Shown in pieces: positions 31,576 through 56,703 of a stretch of DNA of 64,000 nucleotides. Each line of letters begins with the position of its first letter. Positions within the stretch are counted from its first letter, which is position 1. Where the stretch lies: assembly GCA_963708075.1 (NCBI GenBank), contig OY970194.1:7424001-7488000 (forward strand), given 5' to 3'. A program made the translations under genes and the position numbers. The DNA comes from Sedimentisphaerales bacterium (GTDB lineage: Bacteria > Planctomycetota > Phycisphaerae > Sedimentisphaerales > Anaerobacaceae). The notes under the pieces are model-generated. The model was not told the origin of the DNA. It saw only the letters and a program-made list of their open reading frames with translations, and did not search any database.

Positions 31576-33141
31576 ATGGATTACCAATTGATAGGATTGG
31601 CAATTGCGATTCTGCTGCTCACGGGCGTTGGCCTCGTGCTCGCCAGGCGGTTCAGAGATCCATTGAGAGAGCGGAATGATCGCGGTCTGGCCTGCCTCAA
31701 TGACGGGCGCTACGATGAAGCCGTTGAGGAATTTACAAAAGTCACCGACCTGGACCCGATGGAACCCTGCGGCTACCACAACCGCGGCCTGGCCTACGAG
31801 CGCAAAGGGGAATACGATAAAGCAGTCGCGGATTTCTATCGCGCACTCGACATCAACCCGCGATATGCCAGTGCTTACTTCGGTCGTGGTCTCGCGTTCG
31901 GCGGGAAGCGAGACTATGATCGAGCCATAGCAGAGTACACCAAGGCTATTGAGATAGACCCTGGCCGCGCTGACGCGTACAACAACCGAGCAGTCGCCCA
32001 TGGCCTCAAGGGCGAGTACGATCTGGCAATTGCGGATTCTACGAAGGCCATTGAGATAGCTCCTGACGACGCGAAGGCATACTATGGCCGCGGATTGGCC
32101 TACAGCTTCAAGGGCGATCATGGCCGAGCGATACCAGAGTTCACCAAAGCGATTGAATTGGACCCAGAGTTCGCTAGTGCGTACAGTTGGCGAGCGTGGA
32201 GCCACTGCGAAAAAGGCAACTATGACGTAGCGATCTCGGACTGCACTAAAGCGATTGAGTTAGACCCGCATGACTCGTTCGCTTATTATCGCCGCGGCGT
32301 GGCGTACGGCCGGAGTGGCCAAGTTGACCGAGCCATTGCTGACTTCGACAGAGTGCTTGAGATGGACCCAGCCGCCGACGATGCCCTTTACAGTCGGGCC
32401 GTGATCTATCAGCACAAGGGGGACTTGGATTCTGCACTGCGTGGCTATACGGCGGTAATCAAGATACATCCCGAATCCGCCGATGCCCATTTCGGTCGCG
32501 GCAATGTCCACGGTGCCAGGGGCGAGTACGCTGAGGCGATTTCCGCCTACACGAAGGCTCTGGAGATCAATCCGCGTTATGCAGACATCTACGGGGCCCG
32601 TGGCTTCGCCTACCTTCAGCAGGGCAACTACGAGTGTGCGATTTCGGATTACTCGAAAGCCATTGAATCGAATCCGCTGGACGCCGCAAGCTGGCACAAT
32701 CGTGCCTTCGCATATGGCCAGATAGGGCGGCATGATGAATCTATTGCTGATCTCGACAGAGTGCTCGAGATCGAACCAGAAGACGTTAGTGCCCTTCAGA
32801 GTCGAGCCGTGGCCTACCAGCGCAAGGGGGACTTGGATTCTGCGCTACGTGACTTCACAGCAGCGATCAGAATACACCCCGAGCACGCCGAGGCACATTG
32901 GGGACAGGGCTGTATCTATGAGGCCAAGGGGCAATACAACGAGGCGGTTTTCGCCTATACCAAAGCGCGTGAGATCAATCCGCAGATTGCCGAGGTCTAT
33001 GGCAACCGCGCGGGAGTCTACTACGAGCTGCATGAGTACGACAAGGCCTGGGCCGATGTGCACAAGGCTGAGAGCTTGAGGTTGACGATACCCTCGAAGT
33101 TCCTCGATGAACTCCGCAAAGCATCGGGCAGGAACGAATAA
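31576..33141 (+). CDS. Membrane-anchored tetratricopeptide repeat protein (approx. 13 TPRs)
   Basis: N-terminal TM helix then 34-aa repeats 'AY..RG.AY..KG.YD.AIAD.TKAIE.DP'. Confidence 0.95.
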   Translation: MDYQLIGLAIAILLLTGVGLVLARRFRDPLRERNDRGLACLNDGRYDEAVEEFTKVTDLDPMEPCGYHNRGLAYERKGEYDKAVADFYRALDINPRYASAYFGRGLAFGGKRDYDRAIAEYTKAIEIDPGRADAYNNRAVAHGLKGEYDLAIADSTKAIEIAPDDAKAYYGRGLAYSFKGDHGRAIPEFTKAIELDPEFASAYSWRAWSHCEKGNYDVAISDCTKAIELDPHDSFAYYRRGVAYGRSGQVDRAIADFDRVLEMDPAADDALYSRAVIYQHKGDLDSALRGYTAVIKIHPESADAHFGRGNVHGARGEYAEAISAYTKALEINPRYADIYGARGFAYLQQGNYECAISDYSKAIESNPLDAASWHNRAFAYGQIGRHDESIADLDRVLEIEPEDVSALQSRAVAYQRKGDLDSALRDFTAAIRIHPEHAEAHWGQGCIYEAKGQYNEAVFAYTKAREINPQIAEVYGNRAGVYYELHEYDKAWADVHKAESLRLTIPSKFLDELRKASGRNE

Positions 33142-33295
33142 CCAGCCTGTTCCATCACAACGTACCCGTAGTCCGAAAAACTGCCTGCTGATGGAGGAGA
33201 CACCCCGCCTAAAATCTGCGCCTTCACTCCGGAATTTGGCTCCACGGGGCGGAAAATGGCGCATTGTTTAAGTGGGGAGAGGCTGGGGGTGAACG

Positions 33296-33553
33296 ATGAG
33301 CCAAATGACGAAGAGTGTGTGCGAGGGCGTGTGTGCCACCGAAGGCGAAGTACGTGTGCTATGCCCCAATGGTGATGTTTCCCGGACTCTGGCGTGGCAG
33401 TACATCCTGAACCTGGTATTGCCGGCGCTTGCCCTGGTGTCCATGGCCGTGCTGACTATCGTCATGATCGTCCTGCTTGTGACGACGGTCGCCAACGCCG
33501 GCTGGCACCTGGGTCCGTCCTATGTGAGCGTCGATCCCTGGTCAGGCTGGTAA
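33296..33553 (+). CDS. Small hypothetical membrane protein
   Basis: 85-aa ORF with one long hydrophobic segment. Confidence 0.4.
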   Translation: MSQMTKSVCEGVCATEGEVRVLCPNGDVSRTLAWQYILNLVLPALALVSMAVLTIVMIVLLVTTVANAGWHLGPSYVSVDPWSGW

Positions 33554-33620
33554 ATCCGCCGGCCACTTCAGCCTGGGTGGACTCACCTTGCGCATCATTC
33601 TCCTGGCACAGGCGGCGCTG

Positions 33621-35492
33621 CTACCGGATGACCGCCTCGGCGCCTAAGCGGGCGCACCGGCGGCGCTGGCCTTCCTTGAGCAGGCGCTTGCGGAGGCGCA
33701 AGGAGTTCGGGCAGATCTCGACCAGCTCGTCCTGCTGCACGTACTCCAGCATCCCTTCGAGGCTCATGATCCGCGCCGGGCGGATGCGGGCGGCCTCGTC
33801 CTTCGAGGACGTCCGCATGTTCGACAACTGCTTGGCCTTGGCCGCGTTGACGACGATGTCATTGTCCTTGCAGTGCTCGCCGACGATCTGCCCCTCGTAG
33901 ATCTTGTCGCCCGGCTGGACGAAGAACACGCCGCGGTCGTACAGAGCATCGAGCGCGTACGCGGTGACCGTGCCCGTCTCGCTCTGGATGAGCACACCGG
34001 CCTGCCGGTCGGGGATCGAGCCCCGCAGAGGCTCGTACTTCTCGAACGTGTGGTGCATGATCGCCCGGCCCTGCGTCGCCGTCAGCAGGCGGGCGTTGAG
34101 GCCGAAGAGTCCGCGCGACGGGATCATGAACTCCATGTGCACGTAATCGCTGGCGCTGCTCTTCGTGTCCATTTTGAGCAGCTCGCTGCGGCGGGTGCCG
34201 ATCAGGCTCATCACGGCGCTCTGGCAGTCGCCGGGGCACTCGATGACCAGCCGCTCGATGGGCTCCTGGCGGACGCCTTCCTTCTCGCGAATGATGACCT
34301 GCGGCTTGCCCACGCAGACCTCGTAACGCTCGCGGCGCATGTTTTCCAGGAGAATGCCCAGGTGCATCAGCCCCCGCCCCGAGACGATGAACTCGTCGGC
34401 CGACTGTCCCGACTCCATGCGAAGCGCCACGTTCGTCTGCAGCTCCTTTTCCAGCCGGTCGCGGATCTGCAACGACGTGACGTACTTGCCGTCCCGGCCC
34501 GCAAAGGGGCCATTGTTGACCTGGAATGTCATGCTCATCGTCGGCTCGTCGATCGCCACGATGGGCAGAGCGCTGGGCTCGTCCGGGCAGGCGATCGTGT
34601 TGCCGATGTCCACCGGATCGAGGCCGGCCACGGCGCAGATGTCGCCGGCCTGCACCTCGGCGGCGCGCTTCTTGGCGAGCCCTTCGAATTCATACAGTTG
34701 AATCACCTTCTGCTGCGTGTGATGACCCTCTCGGTCGATCACCGTCACCGGCTGGGCCTGCGTCAGCTTGCCCGCGAAGATCTTGCCGACGGCGACGCGC
34801 CCGACGTAGTCGGAGTATTCCAGGGAAGTGACGAGCATCTGCAGGGGCTTGTCCGGGTCGGCCTTCGGCGCCGGGATCGAGCGGATGATCGCCTCATAGA
34901 CCGGCTTGAGGTTCTTGTTGGGTTTCGACAGGTCCGTCGTTGCCCAGCCTTCCTTGGCGGAGGCGAAGATCACCGGGAAATCCAGAGCATCGTCGCTGGC
35001 CTCGAGCTCGACGAACAGGTCGAAGACCTCGTTGACGACGTCGTTGGGCCGGGAGTCCGGGCGGTCCACCTTGTTGACCACGAGGATCGGCTTGAGCTTG
35101 TGGTGCAGGGCCTTGCTCAGCACGAATCGCGTCTGCGGCATGGGCCCGTCGAAGGCATCGACGACGAGCAGCACGCCGTCGGTCATCTTGAGCACGCGCT
35201 CGACCTCGCCTCCGAAATCGGCGTGGCCGGGGGTATCCACGATGTTGATCTTGTACTCGCGGCCGCCCCGGGCGGTGTACTGGATCGAGCAGTTCTTGCT
35301 CAGGATCGTGATGCCTCGCTCGCGTTCGAGCGGGTTGGAATCCATGATCAGGTCATGGTGGCTGCCGGCCAGCTTGTCCAGCTCTTCCGTGCGGAACGAG
35401 CCCGACTGATATAGAAGCTGGTCCACCAGCGTCGTCTTGCCATGGTCTACATGGGCGATGATCGCTACATTGCGTACATTTTCTGCGTACAT
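33621..35492 (-). CDS. typA: Translational GTPase TypA/BipA
   Basis: '[18 protein letters not shown]', '[13 protein letters not shown]', '[14 protein letters not shown]', 'NKVD', 'YEGQIVGE', 'LRLRK'. Confidence 0.98.
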
Positions 35493-35676
35493 GTATCCTG
35501 TCCAAATCCAAGAGTCGTTCCGTTCCGCAGCAAAAAGCGAAACGGGGTATACTTATCGGGGGAGCCGTGAGTCCTGCAACCACGCATACGCTATACTGGA
35601 TGCGGCATTGCCGTGTTCACCTGCCTTGAGGGGCCGCGTGTCCCCAGCCGATTCTAAACCCAGTTACAAGCTCAGT

Positions 35677-35705
35677 ATTCTACCACACCCCCGCCCCGAA
35701 TGCAA
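35677..35705 (-). promoter_or_regulatory. Candidate sigma70 promoter for typA
   Basis: Minus strand TTGCAT-N17-TAGAAT with a TGn extended -10. Confidence 0.6.
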
Positions 35706-35737
35706 TGCCCATCCCGCCATTACCGGGACCGCCCCCG

Positions 35738-36332
35738 CAAATTGGCTTCGTTTTCACAATTGCCCGCGTAGCTCCCTCCTGTCCACCGCCTCCTGCTCGC
35801 TCTGCAAATTGGCTTTGTTTCGCACGGCAGCTCCTTCGCCATCGGGTAGAGTGGGCTGTGCCCACCATCCGCCCGGCAGGGCCAATTGGCTTTGTTTCGG
35901 ATCATCGCAGGATCGATCATAACTCCATTCCTGCAAAGGACTTCGCGTTGATCCCGGCCAGCCCGATTGGCTTTGTCCCGCAGAATCATCCGTACGGTCT
36001 CCTCCAGCCTGCCGCCTCTCGCCTGCCGTCCTCTCCGCTCAAATTGGCTTTGTTCTGCACGGCCACCCATGTCCGTCATTGCCGGCATCCGTCCTTCAAT
36101 CCGTACTCCGCAATCGGCAATCCGTAATCCCATGGCCCCGGCCCCGTAATTGGCTTTGTTTCGCACGGCAGGTTCTCCGATCTTGTAGGGTGGGCTCTGC
36201 CCACCGCTCGTCCGGCCGGGAAATTGGCTTTGTTTCGCGCGACAGACCCGGTTCATAGTGACGCCGTAAGGCGTTCCGTGGCGAGGCCTCCCGCCCTTGT
36301 CTTCTTCCGGAGATTGGCTTTGTTTCGCACGC
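35738..36332. repeat. Orphan repeat-spacer array: 8 copies of approx. AAATTGGCTTTGTTTCGCAC
   Basis: ATTGGCTT cores start at 35741, 35808, 35885, 35966, 36043, 36149, 36223, 36313; periods 67, 77, 81, 77, 106, 74, 90. Confidence 0.92.
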
Positions 36333-36498
36333 ACGAGGATATTTGTCATGGCAGGCGTCCGTCCTCCACTCCGCAATCCCAGGGTCCCCGCATCTCCTGG
36401 CATTTCTCGTTTCTCGCCAATGGCGTGATCGTAGGCCAAGCCGTCGCTGCCAAAGGAGTCATGCCATCCTCTCCTATTCGCTATTGAGTTGTACAAAC

Positions 36499-36527
36499 AT
36501 CCTACAAATGCAGGAGTTGTTCGTCAA
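36499..36527 (-). promoter_or_regulatory. Candidate sigma70 promoter facing into the array
   Basis: Minus strand TTGACG-N17-TAGGAT within an AT-richer leader. Confidence 0.6.
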
Positions 36528-36622
36528 GCAAAATCATGACAATAAAGCGGCTTTCTTCCGGAAGTCTCGTAAGCCGTTGTGACATAAGAGGTTACATGTA
36601 ATTCAGAGAGCCCCCCATCCAT

Positions 36623-36674
36623 GTCATTCCCGCGAAGAGCCTGCCCTGAGCGAAGTCGAATGGGCGGGAATCTA
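36623..36674. repeat. dRS3-like palindrome carrying a nested insert
   Basis: GTCATTCCCGCGAAG-[AGCCTGCCCTGAGCGAAGTCGAATGG]-GCGGGAATC. Confidence 0.65.
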
Positions 36675-36754
36675 GGTTTGGGCCCCACGAAGAGATTCGA
36701 CTATCAACCAGCAACGAACAACTGCCTACCAGATTGAACCGCGGATGAACGCCG

Positions 36755-36795
36755 ATGAACGCAGATAAACCCATGTGCAATAGGGACTTATAGCC
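36755..36795 (+). repeat. 41-bp direct repeat, left copy
   Basis: 34/41 identical to 38816-38856 by manual alignment. Confidence 0.8.
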
Positions 36796-36948
36796 GGTGG
36801 CACACCCAGGGATGCCGTGTCGCGGTCCGCACGAATGCGAGTAATGTGTTGCCCGGATTACGCCGAAATAGGGAAGGCAGCCGCGGAGTTGCCAGGGCCC
36901 GGAACAGCGAAACGGCGCGGTTCATCCGCCCATTGGAGTGCATCCAAG

Positions 36949-37291
36949 GTGATCAGGCAGGAGCTTATCGAACAGATTGACCGGCATCGCAAACGTGGGA
37001 CTCGCTGGATCGTCCTCTGGCTGGTTCTCGTTCTTCGCCCTGTTTGGTCTGGGGGCACTCGTCGCCGAGGGCATTCCGCCTGCAACGGAAACAGTCCTGG
37101 AAGCGGTGCTCATCGTCCTTATGCTGGCGGCCGTACTCGCGCTGATGTTCGGCCTGCTGAGGTCCATGCGGCGCTCGGGGCTGGCCTGTCCTCACTGTCG
37201 CGCGCTGCTCACCAATGTCCTCGCGCCGGTCGCTGTGGCCTCTGGTCGCTGCGGAAAATGCGGCAAACAGATTGTGGAGTCCGACCGGTGA
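36949..37291 (+). CDS. Small two-TM protein with C-terminal zinc ribbon (probable 1-bp frameshift near 37030)
   Basis: 'IRQELIEQIDRHRKRGTRWIVLWLVL' joins 'FFALFGLGAL..CPHC..CGKCG' if one base is removed. Confidence 0.6.
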
Positions 37292-37851
37292 GTTGTCAGA
37301 AGATAACCTGGATGCAGCCGCGCGGGCTTATCTGCCTCATGGCCAGAATGAGGGCAGGGCACGCCTGGCGCGAAGTCAAGATCTGCGTTTTCGCCGTGAC
37401 ACTCAGCTTCATGGCCATCTGGCTCATCTTCAGCCTGCTGGCAATATTCAACCATGACATAGAGACGATGGATCCCATCGAGGCTCTGGTGTTCTCCATG
37501 CTATGCGGCTTCATATTCGCTTGCCTCTACCAGTTGCATTGGCTGGAGCCCTCGCAGGTCATTCTTGACGACGCGGCCATAGTGGTTGCGGGGCGATTTC
37601 GAAGGCGGTATCGCTATGATCAGATTGCAGGAGTTCGCTTCGACACAGTGCGATGGGGGGCAAGCTCGATTCGGATAATGTTGATCGCCCGCCACAACGG
37701 CCGCGACTTCACCCTTGGCGTTCCGCATGGTCTGGACCTGTCGGAAGTGGTTGATTTCCTCAAGAGCAGGGGTGTGGAAGCGACGAATGCAACGGAGGCG
37801 GCTGACGACCTCGCCGGGACACATGCCGCACCTGGGACTGCCGCACGTTGA
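37288..37851 (+). CDS. Membrane protein, two TM helices plus PH-like C-terminal domain
   Basis: GTGA overlap with the previous gene; 'RYRYDQIAGVRF..TLGVP..EVVDFLKSRGVE'. Confidence 0.65.
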   Translation: MSCQKITWMQPRGLICLMARMRAGHAWREVKICVFAVTLSFMAIWLIFSLLAIFNHDIETMDPIEALVFSMLCGFIFACLYQLHWLEPSQVILDDAAIVVAGRFRRRYRYDQIAGVRFDTVRWGASSIRIMLIARHNGRDFTLGVPHGLDLSEVVDFLKSRGVEATNATEAADDLAGTHAAPGTAAR

Positions 37852-37862
37852 GGTTTGAGAAG

Positions 37863-38759
37863 ATGGAAAGCCAGGAGGCAAGCAGGACTGTCATCACCTA
37901 CTCCGGCGATACTCGCTGGTCGTATCTGTGGGTCTTCTCGCTCCTTCCCGTCATGGGTGTGAGCGTGTGGATAGCCGACGTGACGGAGCATGCTTCCTCC
38001 ACGATCATCCAGCTCATTCCTTTGATTGTATTCATTCTTGGGGCCGTAGCCTGGGGTGCAGCGGGGGTGGTCCTGCAGGTAAGGTCGCGGCGGTATCTCA
38101 GGGTCGTGTTCACAATTCCCTGGACTGAGCCAAAGAGCACCTGGGGCTCCCTCATGCGGCTGGAGTGCAGAAAGAAGGGCATCGCGGCGTGGCTCTGGCC
38201 GGGCCTCCGCGTGGGCCTGGTCGTCTCCGGTATCTTCACTGTGCTCTGGTTGTTGCGGTGAGTTGCCTCCTGGCTGAATCATAGCGTGCCCGTGCTTGAC
38301 CCTGCCTGGGCTTTGATCATGGTGCCGCTCTTAACCATCACCATCGCGGGCCTGCTTTACCTGCTCAGCTATGTCGATGTAGTGACGTCGCGCAGGACCA
38401 TCGGCCTGGGCCGCGAATGGATGGGATACCTTCAGGGACGCCCGGGCAGAACGCTCTGGCCCTACGAGCAGGTTGCGGGCGTACGGTTTGAGTCAGCGCC
38501 GATGCGCGAGCAGGAGTGCAGGTTCATGATCGTGACTCCGCACAAAGGCCGTGAGGTTGCCTTTGGCCTGTCGGACGAGGTGGACGTGTGCGAGGTCGCC
38601 GCCTTCCTCGCCGACAAAGGAGTAGAGGTTCTCGAAAGTCTGATCGTTGGCAGAGGCACGAAGCCTTCGGCGAACAACGAGGAACCAGCAACTGCCTTTT
38701 TTGCCACAGAGAGCTTGCCCTCGCGAAGGCGGGGGGCACCGAGGACACAGAGGAATTAG
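37863..38759 (+). pseudogene. Membrane protein paralog with an in-frame TGA at 38259-38261
   Basis: ORFs 37848-38261 and 38286-38759 share a frame and are separated by a single stop; C-terminus 'PYEQVAGVRF..AFGL..EVAAFLADKGVE' resembles 37288-37851. Confidence 0.6.
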
Positions 38760-38815
38760 CAGGATGGGCTCGTAGTCCACGCGGACTCGTTCCGGCGACG
38801 ATGTTGGAACTGCCC

Positions 38816-38856
38816 ATGAACGCTGATAAACTCTTGTGAAACAGGGATTTACAGCC
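38816..38856 (+). repeat. 41-bp direct repeat, right copy
   Basis: Matches 36755-36795. Confidence 0.8.
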
Positions 38857-40104
38857 CACATCCGACGACTGGGTATCTGCAACCGTTCGGTGCCCCCTTG
38901 CCTTCCCGCCCGGCTGGGCCTATGATAAGGGTATGGACTCGGAGACCGATGTAGTGTGTGTCACGCGGAAAAGGTTGCGGTTAATGATTTGTTTCTCGCC
39001 GTTTGCTGAATTGGATCTATCAAAAGCACCGACCATATATAGAGGAACCACTTCCGGGAAGCAGAGAGTGGTATTGTCCACCTATGGATTCCAATGAAAG
39101 GCCTATCAATGGAGCTTGAGAAAGCAATTCAGATGGCGCTCGATGGACGCGCTGTTCTCTTTGTGGGTGCAGGTTTTTCTCGGGGCGCGGTGAACCTCAA
39201 TGGACAGCCATTCAAAAGCGGGCTTGAATTGGCTGCACATTTCGCGTCTCGGGCCTCGCTCCCATCGAGCAGCGGACTGGAGGACGCGTCCGAGGCTTTT
39301 GCAGAGGAACATGGGATAGATAAGTTAATAAGTGAGATACAGATTGAGTTTGGTGCAAGAGAGGTTGCGTCGTTTCATCGGGAGATAGTTGCGATCCCGT
39401 GGAAGCGAATATACACCACGAACTACGACAACGTCGTCGAGCTCGCGTCACGTCTTCAAGGCAAGAGACTCAGCGCTGTAACGCTTGGGACTGACATATA
39501 TAAGATGCCCAAGGATCACACGATCTGTATACATCTTAATGGGTATGCCGAGACCCTGGACCGCAATAAAATATGGACTGAACTCAAGCTTACGGAGAGC
39601 AGTTATGTCACTGCATCAATTGCAGATACTCAGTGGGCAATGCTTTTCAGACAGGACTTGCGGCTGGCGAGAGCCATCTTCTTTGTGGGCTACTCAATTT
39701 CTGATCTGGACATCAAACGAATCCTTTTCGCGTCAGACATCTTAAAGGAGAAATGCTTCTTCTGTGTTGGTCCAGACCCTGATGAGATCATGTTGCGGCG
39801 CGTGGCGAAGTTTGGAACAGTGATGCGTAAATCAGCAGAGGAGTTCGCTGCGGAAATGCACACAGTTGCAGCCACATATGTGCCGGTGGTCAGCGCAGGA
39901 TCATATCCTGTATCTCTTAAGGAATATCAGATAAGGACTCCGGGAACCCCAATTAGTGATAAAGCCTTTTTGGATCTTCTTCTATTGGGCGAGCGGACAG
40001 ATGATCTAATTGCGGAATCCCTACGATCAGGAAAGAGGTACCTCCTTGAGCGAAGCGCAGTCTCCGATGTGTTCCGGCACATCGACAAAGGGAAACGCGT
40101 ACTA

Positions 40105-55443: not shown

Positions 55444-56703
55444 ATGAGCAACAGCAGATTCTCACGTCGTGACTTCATCAAGACTTCGGCGGTGTCGCTG
55501 GCGGCGCTCGGCGCGACGGGCCGGGTGTTTGCGGCCGGGTCCGATACGGTTCGCGTCGGCATCATTGGCTGCGGCGGTCAGGGCACCCGCGACCTGGTCA
55601 GCCTCGTGAAAAGCTCGCCGGGCGTGGAGATTGTGGCCATGGGCGACCTGTTCAAGGACCGGCTCCAAGAGTCGCTCACCAAGCTCAAGAACGATATCCC
55701 CGCCGCCGTGAAGGTCACGCCGGAGAAATGCTTCATCGGCTTTGATGCGCACAAGAAGCTGCTGCAGACGGATGTGCAGATGGTGCTCCTGACGACCCCG
55801 CCGCACTGGCGTGCCCAGCATTTCCAGGCCGCCGTCGAGGCGGGCAAGCACGTGTTCATGGAGAAGCCCGCCGGTGTGGACCCCAAGGCCATTCGCTCGA
55901 TGATCGAGACTGGGGAACTTGCCAGGCAGAAGAAGCTCTCCGTCGTGGCCGGCACGCAGCGGCGGCATAGCAAAAAGTACCAGGAGATCATCCGGCGGAT
56001 TCACGACGGCCAAATCGGCCAGATCGTCTCCGGCCAGGGCTACTGGAACGGCGGCGATATGCTCGGATACTGGAAATGGTGGGACAAGGAGAAGCTCTCC
56101 GATATGGAGTGGCAGTGCCGGAGCTGGCCGTGGTTCACCTGGACCAGCGGCGACCACATCGTCGAGCAGCATGTGCACAACCTTGACGTCCTGAACTGGG
56201 CCTTGCAGGGACATCCCGACCAGTGCATGGGCATGGGCGGCCGGGCCGTCCGCACCCTGGGCAATATCTGGGACCATTTTGCCATCGAGTACGAGTACGC
56301 CAATGGCGTGCGGGTCGAGAGCCTGTGCCGCCAGATCAACGGGTGCACCGACCGGATCGCCGAGCGAGTGGTGGGGACCAAGGGCTTCGCCGACATCGAC
56401 CAGGGCGTCATCAACGGCGAGAAGCCTTACAAGTATGACGGCCCCGATCCGGATCACTACGTGCAGGAGATGGCCGACCTGATCAAGAGCATTCGCGACG
56501 GCGCGCCGATCAATGAGGCGAAGAACGTGGCCGAGAGCACGATGAACGCGATCATGGGCCGCATGAGCGCCTACACCGGCCGGGCCTTGAAATGGGACTG
56601 GGCGATGAAGGCCTCGAAGCTGGACCTGACGCCGCCCAAGTACGAGTTCGTCGATATGCCGACGGACCCTGTGGCCATCCCCGGTAAGACGCAACTCATC
56701 TGA
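55444..56703 (+). CDS. Tat-exported Gfo/Idh/MocA oxidoreductase
   Basis: 'SRRDFIK', 'GIIGCGGQG', 'GKHVFMEKP', 'EQHVHNLD'. Confidence 0.93.
   Translation: MSNSRFSRRDFIKTSAVSLAALGATGRVFAAGSDTVRVGIIGCGGQGTRDLVSLVKSSPGVEIVAMGDLFKDRLQESLTKLKNDIPAAVKVTPEKCFIGFDAHKKLLQTDVQMVLLTTPPHWRAQHFQAAVEAGKHVFMEKPAGVDPKAIRSMIETGELARQKKLSVVAGTQRRHSKKYQEIIRRIHDGQIGQIVSGQGYWNGGDMLGYWKWWDKEKLSDMEWQCRSWPWFTWTSGDHIVEQHVHNLDVLNWALQGHPDQCMGMGGRAVRTLGNIWDHFAIEYEYANGVRVESLCRQINGCTDRIAERVVGTKGFADIDQGVINGEKPYKYDGPDPDHYVQEMADLIKSIRDGAPINEAKNVAESTMNAIMGRMSAYTGRALKWDWAMKASKLDLTPPKYEFVDMPTDPVAIPGKTQLI

Follow-up and report, generated by a model that had tools for sequence, protein, structure and literature searches.

A repeat array upstream of typA in a Sedimentisphaerales bacterium is probably a non-coding stray of a mosaic repeat belonging to a multi-copy gene family

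Neisseria intergenic mosaic elements (NIMEs) consist of RS units of 50-150 bp drawn from limited families and flanked by dRS3 repeats of ~20 bp; a genome contains hundreds of them, located where it is plastic, and they were proposed to feed recombination into silent pilin cassettes, a variable gene family (PMC9778887, PMC3184786). The bacterial interspersed mosaic elements (BIMEs) of repetitive extragenic palindromic (REP) sequences in enterobacteria are presented as intergenic mosaic clusters of short repeats and linker motifs whose copy number varies between relatives (PMC3184786). In this study, we analyzed an array of short direct repeats located upstream of the GTPase gene typA in a Sedimentisphaerales bacterium, within a 64-kb window (C1:7424001-7488000 of genome G000, which is one 7.5-Mb contig). 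The array is probably a non-coding, detached copy of a motif-module mosaic repeat whose home would be the 3' coding region of an uncharacterized multi-copy family; there, the complementary strand of the motif would be translated as CETKPI or AKQSQ.

The motif, ATTGGCTTTGTTTCGCAC, was found seven times at three or fewer mismatches on the + strand of the window between positions 35808 and 36330, against a chance expectation of 0.07 (100 shuffles, largest 1). An eighth match in the window, at 55735 with three mismatches, is unrelated to the typA array. In the whole genome, the exact 12-mer core occurred 241 times compared with once for the reversed control, and 341 matches with up to four mismatches were obtained against 23 for the control. 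Of these 341, 285 are accounted for by 42 arrays of 2-13 copies, each with a single orientation, A29 and A30 being one array split by an insertion sequence (IS). When the copies were aligned, positions 1-12 were near-invariant and the conserved block spanned 17-18 nt without dyad symmetry, the flanks not being conserved; the motif strand is pyrimidine-rich (C 33%, T 26%, G 25%, A 16%), and the motif was never found in hairpin form in this genome.

Every unit consists of the motif, at its 5' end, followed by a module, and a known module begins 17 of the 42 distal array edges vs. 4 of the 42 proximal ones. Spacer length varies between 15 and 357 nt. Under a strict threshold, 12 families were recognized that hold 57 of the 243 spacers, 11 of them spanning at least two arrays; a 69-nt module, modules of heptamer repeats and small hairpins are among these families. 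The module types of the arrays were found outside arrays too. The window array shows the same motif, unit polarity and shared modules as a mosaic repeat, with the module of its unit 1 pairing with A13_4. It must be noted that the initial annotation regarded this array as an orphan, which holds only locally, given the 42 arrays; nor are the spacers unique, as the shared families show. In addition, motif variants differed as much within arrays as between them (mean difference 2.27 vs. 2.27, permutation p 0.48) and, therefore, local tandem duplication alone does not explain the uniformity of the motif.

With respect to their genomic setting, the arrays are flanked by unrelated housekeeping genes (among them typA, fusA, glyA, clpX, purF, an RNase II family gene and a 16S rRNA gene), with no gene family common to the flanks and with distances to gene starts from 47 to >2000 nt. 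The gene on the 5' side (ATTGGC orientation) was divergent in 31 of the 42 arrays (binomial p 0.003), so that the reverse complement of an array usually faces a gene start; genes were called by a crude codon-usage caller built for this analysis. GC skew placed the replication origin at ~5.15 Mb and the terminus at ~1.45 Mb, and no clear leading-strand bias was seen in a hand count (25 arrays with the motif on the leading strand vs. 17 with it on the lagging one). The proximal array flanks are unique apart from a 150-nt block, here called the head, present at seven arrays, and the distal flanks share many other small repeats. A tRNA-like reading of the head was rejected: ARAGORN found no tRNA, and the 12 other sites sharing its first ~30 nt are not tRNA genes but the beginnings of a second repeat family.

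The gene family was reached through another phylum. Exact motif matches elsewhere in GTDB genomes include several Acidobacteriota, four genomes of which hold 11-29 copies vs. 0-1 for the control. In an Acidobacteriaceae genome the motif lay in the same conserved coding context in 8 of the 17 stretches examined. One of these open reading frames (ORFs) was translated (P0001); it reads the motif as IGFVSQ, on the opposite strand with respect to the genes of the window's genome, and had no match in Pfam or NCBIfam. Nine homologues of residues 148-245 of P0001 were detected in the window's genome (E from 2.6e-10 to 2.8e-5), and tblastn with the genome's own copies of this N-terminal domain (N-domain) recovered exactly these nine loci, none of them near the window. 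At all nine, an array begins 0-203 nt past the domain on the opposite strand, the gene reading the reverse complement of the motif. The open frame covers 100% of the array in eight of these genes and 81% in the other one. The motif was read as AKQSQ (frame 1) 37 times and as CETKP (frame 2) nine times, and frame 0 was used in none of the 46 cases (chance 8e-9). Seven of the nine ORFs, with lengths of 264-530 aa, terminate with ...RPRPRVAYHxHDIARSY or some variant of this sequence, in frame in all seven (chance 5e-4), and this shared C-terminal tail is encoded by the 150-nt head block, which has a sharp outer edge. The common 87-nt unit corresponds to a 29-residue protein repeat. Three of the nine ORFs are annotated as proteins in the source annotation of the genome (P0002, P0003, P0024).

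The conserved part of these proteins comprises ~175-190 residues with the invariant pattern ANRxN..S.G....GK.....NA..HG (alignments A1 and A3), and the AlphaFold model of the N-domain has seven helices, two of them long (predicted local distance difference test, pLDDT, 78.6). Homologues in databases are annotated as "hypothetical protein", several of them from metagenome-assembled genomes of Phycisphaerae, and a protein atlas returned unnamed clusters only, from Planctomycetota and Acidobacteriota. No description of the repeat or of the gene family was found in the literature searched, most subscription journals being outside its coverage.

Some other traits of the family loci were observed. 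A match to the nhaA-I (sodium) riboswitch (L142:2670-2725, - strand; 49.2 bits vs. a gathering score of 37) lies upstream of one family gene, at a distance of ~600 nt and on the opposite strand. Family genes of G019 and G007 carry single in-frame TAA, TGA or TAG stops within otherwise full-length matches, and the EF-G matches in G019, G007, G005, G018 and others likewise contain single in-frame stops; these may be pseudogenes, sequencing errors or recoding. Finally, at 12 genome loci (e.g., 5399829, 933124, 7512535) a second repeat family has a sharp-edged start of 30-34 nt, GGGGTGCGGTCGGCATTCGGTGGCGGATTCGG, which is the same as the 3' end of the family genes, and then runs into different tandem modules.

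The other 33 arrays, among them the typA array, show interrupted ORFs, motif frames distributed 76/57/46 and no N-domain nearby: they are non-coding strays. Nine arrays are thus in-frame gene tails and 33 are frame-scrambled strays between unrelated housekeeping genes. In the window, no N-domain gene lies directly upstream of the array on the strand reading the reverse-complement motif, the conserved tail (head) sequence is absent, and the motif is not read solely as AKQSQ or CETKP; similarly, no family gene lies upstream of the typA array of the related locus L259. The array had been initially described as stand-alone and without an adjacent cas, reverse transcriptase or recombinase gene. The absence of an adjoining gene family is true only locally and wrong genome-wide, since nine family genes each run into an array, and the repeat belongs to the 3' coding part of that nine-member family. 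Given that the motif is kept in two frames of the genes, in non-coding strays and on the opposite strand in the acidobacterial homologues, its conservation is at the nucleic-acid level, and it is tied to the gene family. This agrees with the nucleotide-level conservation, without a fixed peptide at the typA locus, that had been proposed for the array.

The features of the typA locus are the following (window coordinates):
33621..35492, - strand: typA/bipA GTPase gene, pointing the same way as the motif's reverse complement
35546..35697, - strand: non-coding stretch upstream of typA, conserved across the genus; the array starts just beyond it
35720..36496, - strand: 258-aa ORF across the array, not a gene
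35741..35758, + strand: motif copy 0, degenerate (ATTGGCTTCGTTTTCACA), the copy closest to typA
35808..35825, + strand: motif copy 1, 0 mismatches, heading a unit with a hairpin module
35851-35865: hairpin GTGGGC-TGT-GCCCAC, within the module of copy 1
35885..35902, + strand: motif copy 2, 2 mismatches, heading the "ATAAC...CTGCAAAGGACTTCG" module
35903-35965: "ATAAC...CTGCAAAGGACTTCG" module, the best-kept module among related typA arrays
35966..35983, + strand: motif copy 3, 3 mismatches
36043..36060, + strand: motif copy 4, 2 mismatches, heading a module of TCCGYAA heptamer repeats
36149..36166, + strand: motif copy 5, 0 mismatches, heading a second hairpin module
36189-36205: hairpin GGTGGGC-TCT-GCCCACC, within the module of copy 5
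36223..36240, + strand: motif copy 6, 1 mismatch, heading a module with GTGACGCCGTAAGGCGTT
36258-36275: GTGACGCCGTAAGGCGTT, whose opposite strand corresponds to TPxGVT coding in the gene family
36313..36330, + strand: motif copy 7, 0 mismatches, heading the last unit, with no motif after it
36499..36527, - strand: TTGACG-N17-TAGGAT, sigma-70-like hexamer pair, a chance-level match

Including the degenerate copy 0, the periods are 67, 77, 81, 77, 106, 74, and 90, with all copies on the + strand and no palindromy, which confirms the eight same-orientation copies of the initial annotation (seven at three or fewer mismatches plus the degenerate one at 35741). The counterpart of the copy-1 unit is present in the related locus L315 and decayed in L260. 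By eye, the "ATAAC...CTGCAAAGGACTTCG" module, taken in reverse complement, is similar to the 5' element conserved in the gene family. The heptamer module family of copy 4 was seen in 10 arrays. The 258-aa ORF uses all three motif frames (1,1,0,1,0,0,2), as had been noted before; it was not called by the codon-usage gene caller and had no Pfam match, and its translation mixes the family peptides AKQSQS, GTPYGVTMN and PCETKPI with the out-of-frame VRNKAN and IRNKAN. The stretch 35546-35697 is the probable true promoter and leader of typA.

Other repeats were observed beyond the array. A dRS3-like inverted repeat with an insert, GTCATTCCCGCGAAG...GGCGGGAATCTAG, lies at 36620-36680, and parts of it recur at ~12 other sites of the genome. 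A short tandem module of the GATGAACGC type (cgcggatgaacgccgatgaacgcagataaac) at 36730-36770 also recurs elsewhere in the genome. At 36556-36600, on the + strand, GGAAGTCTCGTAAGCC...GGTTACATGTAAT resembles by eye the promoter-like 5' element of the nine family genes and precedes unannotated ORFs at 36817 and 36977.

The comparison of the typA-upstream region among relatives, which had been suggested with the initial annotation, showed that the array is of restricted distribution. The typA, glyA, and EF-G loci all carry arrays in the window's genome, and among other genus genomes with available sequence no motif was found upstream of typA in 18 of 18 (full 1500 nt available in 11), of glyA in 21 of 21 (20) or of EF-G in 19 of 19 (13). 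The closest relatives, from metagenomes, do have typA arrays in the same orientation, with differing unit number and order. L315 (TypA identity 96% over the first 182 residues) has eight motif copies upstream of typA, L259 (93%) seven, L270 (89%) three to four, and L260 (92%) two decayed copies with 4 and 2 changes in 13 nt. The typA array is shown to have arisen within the species group of this genome and to change by gain and loss of whole units. The exact insertion borders were not found, as intergenic DNA is not alignable between species of the genus. In corresponding units of the typA arrays, the first 13 nt of the motif were identical at 76 of 78 positions and the modules at 297 of 502, with a value of 0.80-0.82 for the third codon positions of typA. 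Therefore, as the core is kept while modules and synonymous sites of typA diverge, it would be held by something besides recent common descent.

On a wider scale, every other genome of the genus (23 of 23) carries the motif, in 1-535 copies, and so do 29 of 36 of the family; it is nearly absent from other families of the order, and was found in 8 of 301 genomes of an even sample of the phylum. Within the genus, the copy number of the gene follows approximately that of the motif. Among 37 relatives from outside the genus, the protein was found in all six genomes with at least two motif copies (not found, 0), and in those with fewer than two copies it was found in three and not found in 28 (Fisher 3.6e-5, the genomes being related and hence not independent). 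A scan of the genome and its relatives, also suggested initially, thus yielded the 42 arrays and a gene family that co-occurs with them. At 11 of 11 gene loci from 11 other genomes, one belonging to a different family of the order, the reverse-complement motif was located in or just past the 3' part of the ORF. It was mostly read as C-[EKQ]-T-[KN]-P-I, and known motif variants correspond to residue changes.

In a relative of lower G+C content (G048), the motif was found solo and also paired with its own complement in a hairpin adjoining a family gene. In the low-GC mosaic of this genome (L346-L355), it was observed as a hairpin with a 14-bp stem and compensatory T-A/C-G changes, and the heptamer modules are of other sequence (GTTCGTA, AGTATAC, and CACAGAG types).

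Regarding the mechanism, the motif would be a cis-acting nucleic-acid signal for a sequence-specific factor, for which the N-terminal domain of the family itself is the putative candidate. Its recognition would permit the copying or exchange of units between arrays, the stray arrays being by-products that would have no job at typA. A factor acting in trans on the motif had been proposed in the initial annotation, and it remains the best account of the conservation of the motif, which such a factor would presumably bind. A more ambitious reading is that gene family and 17-18-nt motif form an undescribed self-propagating unit, extending at least to Planctomycetota and Acidobacteriota, in which the N-domain recognizes the motif in its own gene, on either strand, drives the copying or exchange of modules, diversifies the tails and sheds strays; stray arrays might then serve as a silent reservoir for tail variation. 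We regard this broader proposal as tentative and, on balance, unlikely.

Several points weigh against the origin of the array in the gene family and the role given to the N-domain. In the phylum sample the protein family was found in 23 of 301 genomes and the motif in 8 of 301, with both in only three, and the phylum matches of the protein are mostly single, more distant copies. Where genomes are fragmented, a low count of the motif may be due to gaps of the assembly at repeats. The units were found through the motif, so the figure of 76 in 78 for its conservation is partly ascertained, unit correspondence between contigs was set by eye from module similarity, and the gene calls come from our own crude caller. 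The gene paralogues are 50-92% identical and, therefore, are not recent transposed copies, a difficulty for the formation of strays without the N-domain. The N-domain had no match in Pfam, NCBIfam, PHROGs, PADLOC or PDB sequences; its best Foldseek E was 0.18, nothing being significant, and VIA-align gave only generic helical hairpins (Z up to 7.4). It has no known binding or recombination activity, and its role in motif recognition is that of a candidate only. Finally, in the sole RNA run found (X1, a soil metatranscriptome with 0.05 of the sampled words) coverage was limited to conserved stretches of typA, derived from other organisms, with none over the array, and the run is uninformative on its expression.

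Other explanations of the array must be considered. Among them, neutral debris, in which the strays would be decaying old gene tails without any factor and their apparent conservation would come from young copies or search bias, is the one to which we give most weight, and it is still decidedly improbable. It is consistent with the stops and the use of all three frames in the 33 stray arrays, with the decay of both L260 copies (4 and 2 changes in 13 nt) and with the ascertainment of units by motif match. However, in module-matched units the core is 97% identical, the modules 59% and typA synonymous sites ~81%. The two reading frames in the genes and the opposite strand in Acidobacteriaceae fit neither protein-level nor neutral conservation, and motif variants are not more alike within arrays. 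The array could also be a stand-alone unit transcribed from its own promoter (36527-36499) and processed into small RNAs or kept as one long sponge RNA. The units do share one orientation, the reverse complement faces a gene start in 31 of 42 arrays (p 0.003), and the promoter-like hexamer pair reported in the initial annotation is indeed present upstream. Nevertheless, this pair, with 9 of 12 consensus matches, is at chance level (one site found vs. 0.7 expected in a region of such size) and was not conserved in L259, the closest relative with enough upstream sequence, so that its designation as the array's own promoter did not hold. Moreover, the modules fold only slightly better than shuffled sequences (mean z -0.5 and -0.3 for the two strands), Rfam 15 gave no relevant covariance-model match at E <=1 in window positions 33000-39000 and none at four other arrays, the array is absent at typA in 18 of 18 other genus species, and nine sister arrays are inside ORFs. 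In attention to this, such a stand-alone unit is very unlikely.

A mobile origin, as REP-like or PATE-like (palindrome-associated transposable element) units moved as single-stranded DNA by an IS200-type Y1 (HuH) transposase, whose target within the motif would produce head-to-tail arrays, is highly improbable as well. The genome contains 13 Y1_Tnp matches plus one by Pfam, two of the three paralogues of one Y1 subtype have an array nearby, at 463 and 588 nt and with the same relative layout, the number of Y1 genes in the genomes of the genus increases roughly with that of motif copies, and the G048 motif pairs with its own complement in a hairpin with compensatory changes. Against this, only 2 of 14 Y1 genes are near arrays, and these two loci share flanking homology and hence are not independent; Y1 genes are common in motif-free relatives (six in G055, four in G046, three in G043), the motif is never a hairpin in the window's genome, and there is no leading-strand bias (25 vs. 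17 arrays). Least credible, and extremely improbable, is a cluster of operators through which a host regulator or nucleoid protein would control typA and other housekeeping genes. Such a cluster would suit arrays located upstream of and co-oriented with genes such as typA, fusA, glyA, clpX, purF, and a 16S rRNA gene, and also the strongly conserved core, but at typA, glyA and EF-G none of the other genus species examined has an array, the arrays lie from 47 to >2000 nt from gene starts, and the flanking genes have no common function. The sigma-54 consensus has a GG-N10-GC spacing of its -24 and -12 elements, and the sigma-54-like motif found here has GG-N9-GC, not the canonical N10, for which reason a sigma-54 promoter was rejected. 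The canonically spaced TGGCAC-N5-TTGC was counted 28 times in the genome, other spacings 10-19 times, and there is one rpoN gene; canonical sigma-54 promoters thus seem to be in use.

Mobile genes beside the arrays were also checked. Six multi-copy gene kinds were considered (four transposases, a small helix-turn-helix protein and the Y1 subtype) and, apart from the Y1 subtype (2 of 3), only 1-2 of 4-13 copies adjoin an array, so that the arrays look like tolerated landing sites. IS110 and reverse transcriptase occur once each in the genome and showed no wider link to arrays. The only RVT_1 ORF of the genome (519 aa) was observed ~1.3 kb upstream of a 16S rRNA gene (L356, G000:C1:1186000-1199000), with a solo motif and heptamer modules between the two; taken in reverse complement, this motif has the direction of the rRNA gene.

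The origin of the typA array in the gene family, which we prefer, has several consequences. It removes a false lead, since the array is not an orphan small-RNA or CRISPR-like system. A motif conserved to the letter between two phyla, in either orientation and in two frames of a single uncharacterized family, also punctuates dozens of fast-changing intergenic arrays, and the candidate partner protein opens the origin and spread of mosaic repeats to experiment. If the nine gene-internal arrays are translated, peptides such as AKQSQFEEPQEDHR, CETKPI-containing peptides and the shared tail would be expected. Genome annotation should also take into account that a long ORF spanning an array of this type is a true gene in some places and an artefact elsewhere.

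Compared with known systems, the array resembles CRISPR arrays in its short same-orientation repeats, the variable segments between them and one more AT-rich flank. Unlike CRISPR repeats, of ~23-55 nt and often partly palindromic, the repeat has 18 nt and no dyad symmetry, and the spacers (15-357 nt) are partly shared instead of being unique and near-uniform. In addition, Cas1 (PF01867) gave no matches in the 7.5-Mb single-contig genome, which is 92.8% complete, and was detected in control genomes, and a blastn comparison of the array with 50,697 phage and 72,556 plasmid records gave nothing. The initial view that this is not a CRISPR array is therefore supported by the absence of Cas1, the 17-18-nt repeat, the shared spacers and the lack of phage or plasmid matches.

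With BIMEs and systems of REP sequences and REP-associated tyrosine transposases (RAYT), the arrays share the intergenic mosaic of short repeats and a copy number that changes between relatives. REP units, however, are palindromic and rich in G+C, alternate in orientation and are linked to a Y1 transposase, whereas the motif described here lacks symmetry and keeps one direction, without a systematic vicinity of Y1 genes (2 of 14 within 1 kb of an array). Orphan C-terminal cassettes of polymorphic toxin genes (cdiA-CT and rhs) belong to genes with a conserved N-part, a short conserved junction motif and a variable C-part, with detached C-terminal fragments elsewhere. The layout of N-part, junction and variable tail, together with the detached fragments, is similar here; however, neither toxin nor immunity domains were detected, the strays, with their scrambled frames, are not swappable as they stand, and it is as DNA, whichever the strand, that the junction motif is conserved. 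Rickettsia palindromic elements are palindromic selfish repeats inserted in frame, singly, in many unrelated genes, and they do not form arrays. They share with the present repeat the nucleotide-level conservation inside ORFs, to which they add peptide segments, and differ from it in that the latter is confined to one gene family plus intergenic strays.

As in NIMEs, units of ~50-150 bp from recurring families are separated here by a repeat of ~20 bp. The differences lie in the repeat itself, as dRS3 is an inverted repeat (ATTCCC-N8-GGGAAT) and ATTGGCTTTGTTTCGCAC is asymmetric, only direct and unrelated in sequence, and it is also translated inside genes. By this comparison, the array lacks the features that define CRISPR, NIME, REP/RAYT, and a sigma-54 promoter, the in-gene form recalls the Rickettsia palindromic elements, and the architecture as a whole appears closest to that of the Neisserial mosaic elements.

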